This document shows positions 2,332 to 3,176 of a stretch of 39,615 nt of DNA, piece by piece (the stretch's first letter is position 1; the number at the start of each line of letters is the position of its first letter). Under the pieces are notes generated by a model, which saw only the letters and a program-made list of their open reading frames with translations, did no database searches and was not told the origin of the DNA. The stretch lies in the sequence record PP541512.1; one strand, written 5' to 3'. The position numbers were made by a program, and so were the translations under genes. The stretch comes from Escherichia phage PSK1.

Positions 2332-2793
2332 ATGTATATTCGCAAGGCTACAGATGTAGACGTTTGGTACGCTGCTGCACAACTTACAGATGACGACTTA
2401 GAGGAGTGTAAAGCCAACTATGGGACCATTGAAGGTCTCACTGAAAGGTTACAAGCACACCTAACGTCTTCATCTGTGGTTTTGACTAACGCTCTTGGAG
2501 AGATATATGCCTATGGGGGCAACCACGGTGACAACGTTTGGTTCCTGACTACCAGAATGACAGAGCGTCTCCCGCCTAAAGGTAAGCGAGAGTTCCGTGA
2601 GAGAATCATGGAGTATCGTGACAAGATGCTGGAGGACTATCCGGTACTATGGAACTACGTCTGGGAAGGCAATACGTCTCACATCCGGTTTCTCAAGTCA
2701 ATAGGCGCTAAGTTCCACGACGATAAGTGGACCAGAAGTCCAGTGACTGGAGAAGTATTCATTCTATTCACAATCACCAAGGAGGACACGTGA
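2332..2793 (+). CDS. Hypothetical protein at the gp13 (internal virion protein A) position
   Basis: 153-aa ORF between gp12 and gp14, preceded by a phage promoter and an AGGAG RBS. Assignment is by synteny only. Confidence 0.5.
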
Positions 2794-3176
2794 CTAAGGT
2801 CTGTACCGTCTGTAAAATTGAAAAGCCACTAGAAGCGTTCTCTCCACGGAAAGACTCTAAGTGTGGTGTACGCTCTGCCTGTAAGCTGTGTCATAATGGA
2901 CGGAGCCACAAGAACAAGGGATACGAGAAGTATCACATTACGCAGATAGAATATGATTCCATCCTAAAAGAGCAGGGCGGGGTCTGCGCAATCTGCAAGA
3001 CATTAGGAACTAGCCGAGGATTATGCGTTGACCACTGTCACACCTCCGGGAAAGTCCGAGGAATCCTATGTCATACCTGCAACCTAAAGCTGACCCGTAG
3101 AAACTACCACTCTACATGCGAAGATTTCGATGGTAAGGCTGCTGAGTATCTGGCTACAAGCCGGAAGGGGGATTAG
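2790..3176 (+). CDS. HNH homing endonuclease (endonuclease VII-like)
   Basis: Motif CAICK...[21 protein letters not shown] fits the HNH/Endo VII zinc-binding core. GTG start at 2790 follows AAGGAGG (2780-2786) and overlaps the gp13 stop (GTGA); the ORF-track start at 2727 lies inside gp13. Confidence 0.7.

Follow-up and report, generated by a model that had tools for sequence, protein, structure and literature searches.

The 39,615-nucleotide (nt) genome record of Escherichia phage PSK1 (PP541512.1), analysed over its full length and called the window below, contains an open reading frame (ORF) at 2790..3176 on the + strand, between the virion genes gp13 and gp14. We consider it likely, from comparison of this sequence with those of related phages, that the ORF is a free-standing gene, still intact, for a homing-type endonuclease of the endonuclease VII branch, and that this gene has taken over the translation start of gp14. 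The gene is present sporadically at a fixed locus, is discordant with its flanks and is accompanied in related phages by degenerating copies. Patchy presence, several alleles, decay and discordance are the signatures expected of a homing gene in a cycle of invasion, decay and loss. A preliminary description of this DNA had proposed a free-standing mobile gene, and that proposal is supported by the patchiness, the three alleles, the remnants and the discordance with phage U8 that are described here.

The nuclease ORF and its protein family

The GTG start codon of the ORF (2790-2792) overlaps the gp13 stop codon TGA (2791-2793) in the sequence GTGA, and the ORF ends at TAG (3174-3176), giving a protein of 128 amino acids. 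A Shine-Dalgarno sequence, AAGGAGG (2779..2785, + strand), is seen in the sequence and in junction alignments 4 nt upstream of the GTG, and the final codons of gp13 contain this ribosome-binding site (RBS). An automatic ORF listing gave a longer ORF of 149 amino acids from GTG 2727. We rejected this start, which lies inside gp13 without an RBS; the genes of relatives begin with ATG or GTG at the equivalent of 2790, just past the RBS, indicating that 2790 is the correct start. The translation has the pattern CAIC...VDHCH and contains C66-x2-C69 ... D81-H82-C83-H84 ... V89-R90-G91-I92-L93-C94-H95-T96-C97-N98, with the DHCH motif beginning at nt 3030. The coordinates, the GTGA overlap and the clear DHCH zinc/HNH motif given in the preliminary description were thus all found in the sequence.

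Pfam scanning, which covered 13 ORFs of the window, assigned the protein to Endonuclease_7 (PF02945) with 60.7 bits against a cut-off of 23.6 (E 1.3e-16). The protein also matched PHROG 2633, 'endonuclease VII' (E 1.9e-26), all PHROG matches were to 'endonuclease VII' or HNH families, and PF02945 was carried by 120 of the 120 database homologues listed. No canonical HNH-named Pfam profile, such as PF01844, was matched, and Endonuclease_7 was the sole Pfam family reported at E <= 0.01. Judged by these profiles, the name 'HNH homing endonuclease' used in the preliminary description is right at the level of the HNH/His-Me superfamily only, while the precise family is endonuclease VII-like and not canonical Pfam HNH.

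In an alignment of 62 homologues, C66, C69, D81, H82, H84, R90, L93, C94, C97 and N98 were invariant, and C5, C8, C31, C34 and G87 were near-invariant. The window protein has every one of these residues. Loss of the catalytic His or Asn had been named in the preliminary description as a finding that would speak against its reading; the His, the Asn and the zinc ligands are all retained. Two modules can be recognised. The near-invariant cysteine columns (C5, C8, C31, C34), the alignment to the restriction enzyme Hpy99I from its residue 76 and beta-hairpins in a structural model mark an N-terminal CxxC...CxxC zinc ribbon (2802..2891, + strand), presumed to be a DNA-binding module. The invariant columns, alignment to T4 endonuclease VII and Hpy99I, and a fold search mark a beta-beta-alpha-metal catalytic core (C66, C69, D81, H82, H84, C94, C97, N98; 2985..3083, + strand), in which D81, H82, H84 and N98 are the predicted active site and C66, C69, C94 and C97 the predicted zinc ligands.

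The AlphaFold (AF2) model, with a predicted local distance difference test (pLDDT) score of 87, showed confident small beta-hairpins in the zinc-ribbon region and, in the core, strands 79-82 and 89-93 followed by a helix at 95-102, forming a hairpin and helix over residues 79-102. The best fold matches found with Foldseek were Hpy99I, T4 endonuclease VII, Cap5 HNH, Gme HNH and Cas9 HNH. The protein therefore combines a modelled metal-finger fold with the conserved His, Asn and Asp residues of the His-Me finger (HNH/beta-beta-alpha-metal) superfamily. The ratio of non-synonymous to synonymous substitution rates (dN/dS) among diverged intact copies was 0.05-0.09, which indicates a protein that was functional for most of its history.

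Of the proteins with solved structures, Hpy99I (PDB 3fc3) was the closest in sequence (E 1.6e-4), with query residues 3-105 aligned to chain residues 76-182, a region that covers both the CxxC...CxxC segment and the core. The proteins differ in that identity is ~25%, the global template modelling score (TM-score) is 0.30 and Hpy99I has an extra N-terminal domain. By analogy, this likeness supports sequence-specific cutting of ordinary duplex DNA by the phage protein. Hpy99I is a bacterial type II restriction enzyme, and is expected to act with a protecting methyltransferase. No methyltransferase gene adjoins the nuclease gene, and none was recognised from T7-like gene order in the list of + strand ORFs of the window, of which 13 ORFs were covered by the Pfam scan. 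A restriction-modification reading, which the Hpy99I match might invite, was rejected because the neighbours are virion genes and no methyltransferase lies beside the nuclease.

T4 endonuclease VII (gp49; PDB 1en7, 2qnc) shares the zinc-binding His-Me core. Its motifs CxxC, DH-H, (G)KVRGxLC and CN align residue for residue with the window protein, and D81/H82/H84/N98 fall on DHDH...CN. However, the match is confined to residues 16-85 of the 157 amino acids of gp49 (E 0.02), the rest of gp49 is unmatched, and the window nuclease carries an N-terminal zinc ribbon unrelated to gp49. The common zinc and catalytic core, membership of a Pfam family that takes its name from T4 recombination endonuclease VII, and the purifying selection on the nuclease could all be taken to mean that the protein is a housekeeping enzyme which, as T4 gp49 does, works on the phage's own DNA, for example by resolving branched intermediates of replication or recombination or in mismatch repair before packaging. 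Such a role is hard to reconcile with the weakness of the similarity to gp49, with the absence of any gene at the site in ~87% of close relatives and with the persistence of deleted or point-mutated copies in viable isolates. The genome also already has a T7-type endonuclease I (25889-26341; E 2.8e-81), which makes a resolvase role for the nuclease unnecessary. We rejected the idea of a resolvase orthologous to T4 gp49 on account of the weak, partial match and the presence of endonuclease I, and regard a housekeeping function as very improbable, the least probable of the readings considered here.

Distribution and alleles

We built a junction query by joining gp13 and gp14 sequence, 300 nt of each, and counted phage records that covered at least 80% of it. 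Approximately 210 records matched. In an evenly spaced sample of them nearly all matches spanned 606-612 nt, which means that the site was empty. The 3' junction of alleles A and C, which are defined below, was found in 18 records and the EcoDS1-type allele B in 8, so that the site was occupied in ~26 of the ~210 records (~13%). Dozens of Salmonella kayfunaviruses match the window at 94-95% identity in the flanks and are missing exactly the ~388 bp gene. Universal presence at this site in the lineage, which the preliminary description had said would count against a mobile gene, was thus not what we found, and the comparison with insert-free relatives that it had proposed defined the empty site in ST66 (…AAAGGAGGCTGATATGTGCGAACC…), PE3-1 (…AAGGAGGACGTATGTGTGAACC…) and STP-SP3.

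Three alleles, A, B and C, occupy the same gp13/gp14 slot. Allele A is carried by the window, ZCEC02, Esher2 and HC13, and, with the identity to the window gene in brackets, by U8 (98.7%), pO91 (93%), CY1 (90%) and ST21, ST1, ST3 and Penshu1 (79%). Allele B comprises gp13.5 of EcoDS1 and its relatives, whose DNA cannot be aligned with that of allele A outside the core. Allele C, present in Ro45lw and the metagenome contig ERZ808240, has a body that differs from that of allele A and the same last ~43 nt. In a metagenome scan, two contigs proved useful and a third match was due to chance; the scan of IMG/VR for further junctions yielded two contigs, apparently those of ZG49 and Ro45lw.

The window ORF corresponds to 'gene 13.5' of EcoDS1, which is annotated 'endonuclease VII', and the two, like the counterparts in ZCEC02, Penshu1, Ro45lw and Hafnia phage Ca/yong1, share genus, gp13/gp14 slot and Pfam family. 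In EcoDS1 the gp14 ATG is kept and overlapped (ATGTGTGA), whereas the window has ATT at the gp14 start. The ZCEC02 protein, annotated 'endonuclease', is identical in amino acids to that of the window, and its 387-nt gene is 99.7% identical; in Penshu1 the annotation reads 'recombination endonuclease VII'. The paper on Hafnia phage Ca names the gene among extra genes, with no functional test (PMC8861465), and our literature search found gp13.5-type genes mentioned at the level of annotation only and no published experimental study. The gene is already deposited and annotated in sister phages, so that the finding is ordinary and the gene call itself adds nothing.

Two other phages show variations at the slot. 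Cronobacter phage Dev2 (708-840) has in it an unrelated, unannotated ORF of 43 amino acids with a CPKC...CYKC pattern, which overlaps the gp14 ATG (ATGTGTGA). The empty site of Salmonella phage STP-SP3 (~395-425) reads AAGGAGGTGAACC GTG TGC, with an EcoDS1-type 3' module fused to the end of gp13 and with GTG as the gp14 start; from its sequence, it looks like the footprint of a precise loss of allele B through recombination between two RBSs.

Mosaicism around the nuclease gene

Alignment of the window with U8 revealed abrupt changes in identity. No mismatches were present over 2211-2351, which contains the end of gp12, the intergenic region and the first 20 nt of gp13. The gp13 body (2352-2778, + strand) was densely divergent, with 63-75% identity in the sliding identity plot and the mismatch map. 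The mismatch map then showed only 5 mismatches in the 484 bp of 2779-3262, that is, the nuclease gene and 83 nt of the 5' end of gp14, and from 3263 onward the rest of gp14 returned to an ordinary ~95% (94-96%). The identity breaks at 2778/2779 and ~3263 are sharp. The gp13 body of the window was also sharply divergent (63-75%) from those of pO91, ST21 and Penshu1. There are two deeply diverged alleles of gp13, which are swapped as a cassette within flanking DNA that is 94-100% identical; one boundary of the swap is ~20 nt inside gp13, and the other coincides exactly with the left edge of the nuclease gene. Allele A is found on two very different gp13 backgrounds, and the gp13 type of the window also occurs where the site holds allele B or is empty.

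These identity profiles suggest that 2779..3262 is a mobile cassette together with ~83 bp of co-transferred gp14 5' end. The few mismatches to U8 within it, set against the dense divergence of 2352-2778, bear out the earlier suggestion that the nuclease gene marks recent gene flow. The further suggestion that the insert may explain other changes in the morphogenesis block holds in part, for the gp13 swap at the left edge, the 83 bp over which gp14 is identical, and the altered start codon of gp14 only.

The architecture of the protein, which is that of a site-specific beta-beta-alpha-metal nuclease closest to the restriction enzyme Hpy99I, would also suit a nuclease of inter-phage competition, one that cuts the DNA of co-infecting relatives or of the host and whose own copying is incidental or absent. 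Patchiness among phages with common hosts, and the absence of visible co-conversion on the gp13 side, agree with such a role. Yet the occurrence of three alleles and several remnants at exactly one site fits copying into a fixed target better, as does the travel of the gene with ~83 bp of identical gp14. Exclusion and homing are, moreover, not mutually exclusive, for homing by the T4 seg and mob genes is accompanied by marker exclusion in the account given by passages of PMC2988022. We think it unlikely that exclusion is the main role of the gene.

The start of gp14

The left edge of the insertion can be placed by comparing phages that share the U8 type of gp13. The junction reads AAGGAGGACGT|ATGTGTGAACC in insert-free PE3-1 and AAGGAGGACGT|ATGACGAAGG in the nuclease gene remnants of Esher7 and SKEL01000564, and exactly where the two remnants have the nuclease ATG, PE3-1 has the gp14 ATG. 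This comparison indicates that the nuclease ORF starts exactly at the former gp14 start and uses the gp14 RBS. The equivalent of AAGGAGG serves gp14 in insert-free relatives and the nuclease ORF in the window.

At the right edge, all of the 13 allele A/C junctions examined had the form ...GGAAGG(G/A)GGATTAG(G/A)AA ATT TGC GAA CCA.... The ancestral gp14 ATG is ATT in carriers of these alleles (3180-3182 in the window), 3 nt past the nuclease TAG, whereas phages with an empty site or allele B begin gp14 with ATG (or, in STP-SP3, GTG). A Shine-Dalgarno-like purine-rich run, GGAAGGGGGA (3163..3172, + strand), lies in the last nuclease codons, 7 nt upstream of ATT 3180, and is kept in every remnant and across alleles A and C.

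The gp14 start chosen by ORF callers is ATG 3213, and the 11 codons from the ATT to 3213 are open and in frame in every carrier. Initiation at ATT 3180 would give a gp14 that includes CEPISIGLGIMSVAGATMSASQQAK, while a start at M12 would give MSVAGAT.... Codons 2-11 (CEPISIGLGI) vary mostly synonymously (TGC/TGT, GAA/GAG, TCA/TCT/TCC/AGC, ATC/ATT/ATA, four Gly codons, and TTA/CTA), and one lineage has an in-frame insertion of two codons within the region; the synonymous variation and the in-frame insertion indicate that codons 2-11 are translated. Upstream of the ATT, the same frame holds one sense codon and then the TAG. On these sequence features, we judge the chances for and against initiation of gp14 at AUU 3180 to be about equal. 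Public annotations of gp14 in insert-bearing phages begin at a downstream ATG, 8-18 codons later, and are probably too short by that number of codons. A fusion of the nuclease to gp14 by read-through of TAG 3174 was rejected: the two share a frame, and no evidence was found in its support.

Degenerate copies

Four remnants of the gene have arisen by independent internal deletions, all of them in-frame. KM02 (991-1173) has lost 204 nt, the catalytic core included; Esher6/7 (Esher7 ~868-942) has lost 312 nt and retains a 24-codon stub; SKEL01000564 has lost 237 nt, leaving a stub of 49 codons; and Monomax has lost 321 nt, leaving a 29-codon stub of allele C. In each of the four, the start codon, at least the last 12 codons and the TAG-N3-ATT junction are kept. 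The probability that four deletions are in-frame by chance is (1/3)^4, or ~0.012. An out-of-frame deletion would send ribosomes across the gp14 start, stopping at 3204-3206 in one frame and much further on in the other. The in-frame remnants are consistent with dependence of gp14 on upstream translation, and the pattern suggests that translation of gp14 may be coupled to that of the nuclease ORF.

In ZG49 (860-1100), the 5' half of the nuclease gene is deleted along with the C-terminus of gp13 (~18 codons). gp13, a TGA, a fragment of the nuclease core, the TAG and gp14 are all in one frame in this phage. Either the arrangement is real and viable, or the sequence of this record, which has reached version 5, is faulty.

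Changes are also present in copies of full length. The copy in ST21 (6787-7173) has C94R at an invariant zinc ligand, that in pO91 (6790-7176) has G87W at the near-invariant Gly, and the U8 copy (6788-7174) and that of the window are separated by 5 substitutions, none of them synonymous. To judge from the positions affected, the substitutions in several full-length copies are probably disabling.

It could be argued from the deletions that nuclease activity is irrelevant in the window, and that the ORF is kept as a leader because gp14 translation depends on its 3' end and on the passage of ribosomes through it. The retention of start, frame, at least the last 12 codons and TAG-N3-ATT in the four remnants is what such a leader would require, and alleles A and C have the 3' 43 nt in common despite their differing bodies. 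However, the window copy retains every invariant residue, and a dN/dS of ~0.05 between full-length genes, over saturated synonymous divergence, is unexpected for a mere leader. We hold this explanation to be highly improbable, and continue to favour an intact homing-type nuclease gene.

Genome setting and flanking genes

The genome from which the window derives is complete and circularly permuted, and is that of a K1F-like phage of the T7 family, genus Kayfunavirus. Positions 1-127 are identical to 39489-39615, an assembly overlap that gives a true length of 39,488 bp; the record of ZCEC02 is also 39,488 bp long. Over 2000-4000, the nearest public records are those of Escherichia phages ZCEC02, MirsaeidiM_Esher2 and HC13, with 97-98% identity.

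gp12 spans the ends of the window and stops at 2255. It is followed by gp13 (2332..2793, + strand), which encodes an internal virion/scaffold protein (Pfam Phage_T7_Gp13, PF11090, E 1.8e-35; PHROG 308). Downstream of the nuclease gene is gp14 (3180..3767 with the proposed ATT start, + strand; Pfam T7_gp14, PF24072, E 2e-41), and then gp15 (3779-6061) and gp16 (6048-9953). A tblastn search, a motif scan and a Pfam scan of ten further ORFs detected no second copy of the nuclease and no other HNH gene in the window.

Two further regions of the genome were variable between relatives. U8 (10062-10511) has an extra hypothetical ORF of 149 amino acids between gp15 and gp16 which is absent from the window (~6050-6450), and around the gp15/gp16 junction of the window identity to U8 and Penshu1 falls to 71-88%; this junction may be another insertion hotspot. 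Between gp10 and gp11, at ~38140-38640, the window aligned at only 9-71% with pO91, Penshu1 and ST21 (in ST21, the last part), but at 98-100% with U8. The DNA downstream of the capsid gene is thus variable here.

Discussion

The comparisons described above can be accommodated by the following sequence of events. On co-infection by an insert-bearing and an insert-free Kayfunavirus, the enzyme would cut the insert-free genome near the gp13/gp14 junction, and recombinational repair, with the insert-bearing genome as template, would give the broken genome a copy of the gene and of a short part of gp14. Landing on the translation start of gp14, the cassette would take both the Shine-Dalgarno sequence and the start position of that gene, and the 3' end of the nuclease gene would supply gp14 with a replacement Shine-Dalgarno sequence. 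gp14 would then be initiated at AUU, 3 nt past the nuclease stop codon, perhaps with the help of terminating upstream ribosomes.

The window nuclease resembles the free-standing seg and mob genes of T-even phages, and the overlap with the upstream stop codon is part of the resemblance. As set out in passages of PMC2988022, those genes (mobE, segB and segG, for example) are small nucleases that lie between conserved genes, are patchy among relatives and spread in co-infection by cutting the allele that lacks the gene. They often overlap the upstream stop codon, as in the UAAUGA of nrdA/mobE, which is taken there to suggest translational coupling (PMC2988022). Differences are also apparent. The seg enzymes are of the GIY-YIG type and the mob enzymes are canonical HNH proteins, whereas the window nuclease, with its N-terminal zinc ribbon, is of the endonuclease VII type and is a putative homing enzyme. 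In addition, the passages of PMC2988022 consulted on translational control of seg and mob genes make no mention of takeover of a downstream start codon.

Several observations weigh against the reading that we favour. Recombination together with deletion of a non-mobile accessory gene could in part mimic the comparative patterns. At the left boundary, the comparison with U8 reveals no co-conversion into gp13; for simple homing this would be unusual, and it points to additional recombination. Since some copies of full length appear disabled, the activity of the window copy is not to be assumed. With respect to gp14, recombination with ATG-type phages could have brought in the coding-like variation after the ATT, and ZG49 has no in-frame ORF running from a recognisable start to the TAG, so that strict coupling is not required. 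Finally, RNA structure masking the junction was not found, the predicted fold of 3110-3240 being no better than those of shuffled sequences (z = +1.14), and a hairpin hiding the gp14 start was accordingly rejected as the basis of coupling.

The position of a homing gene on the start of gp14, an essential ejection-protein gene, raises the idea of entrenchment, in which clean loss of the insert would cripple gp14 and only in-frame internal deletions would survive. We put this forward tentatively, considering it somewhat more apt to be wrong than right. If it were true, a selfish element would have secured its own retention by making a host gene depend on it for translation.

Free-standing nuclease genes are nothing unusual in T7-like genomes. 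What the comparative picture adds is an account of the anomalous divergence of gp13 beside the nuclease gene, and it marks the Kayfunavirus gp13/gp14 junction as a hotspot of recombination and insertion. Of modest interest, as a side result, are the in-frame remnants and the replacement of the gp14 start codon: if initiation at AUU and the dependence of gp14 are both true, the locus would provide a tidy example of a selfish gene becoming hard to lose.

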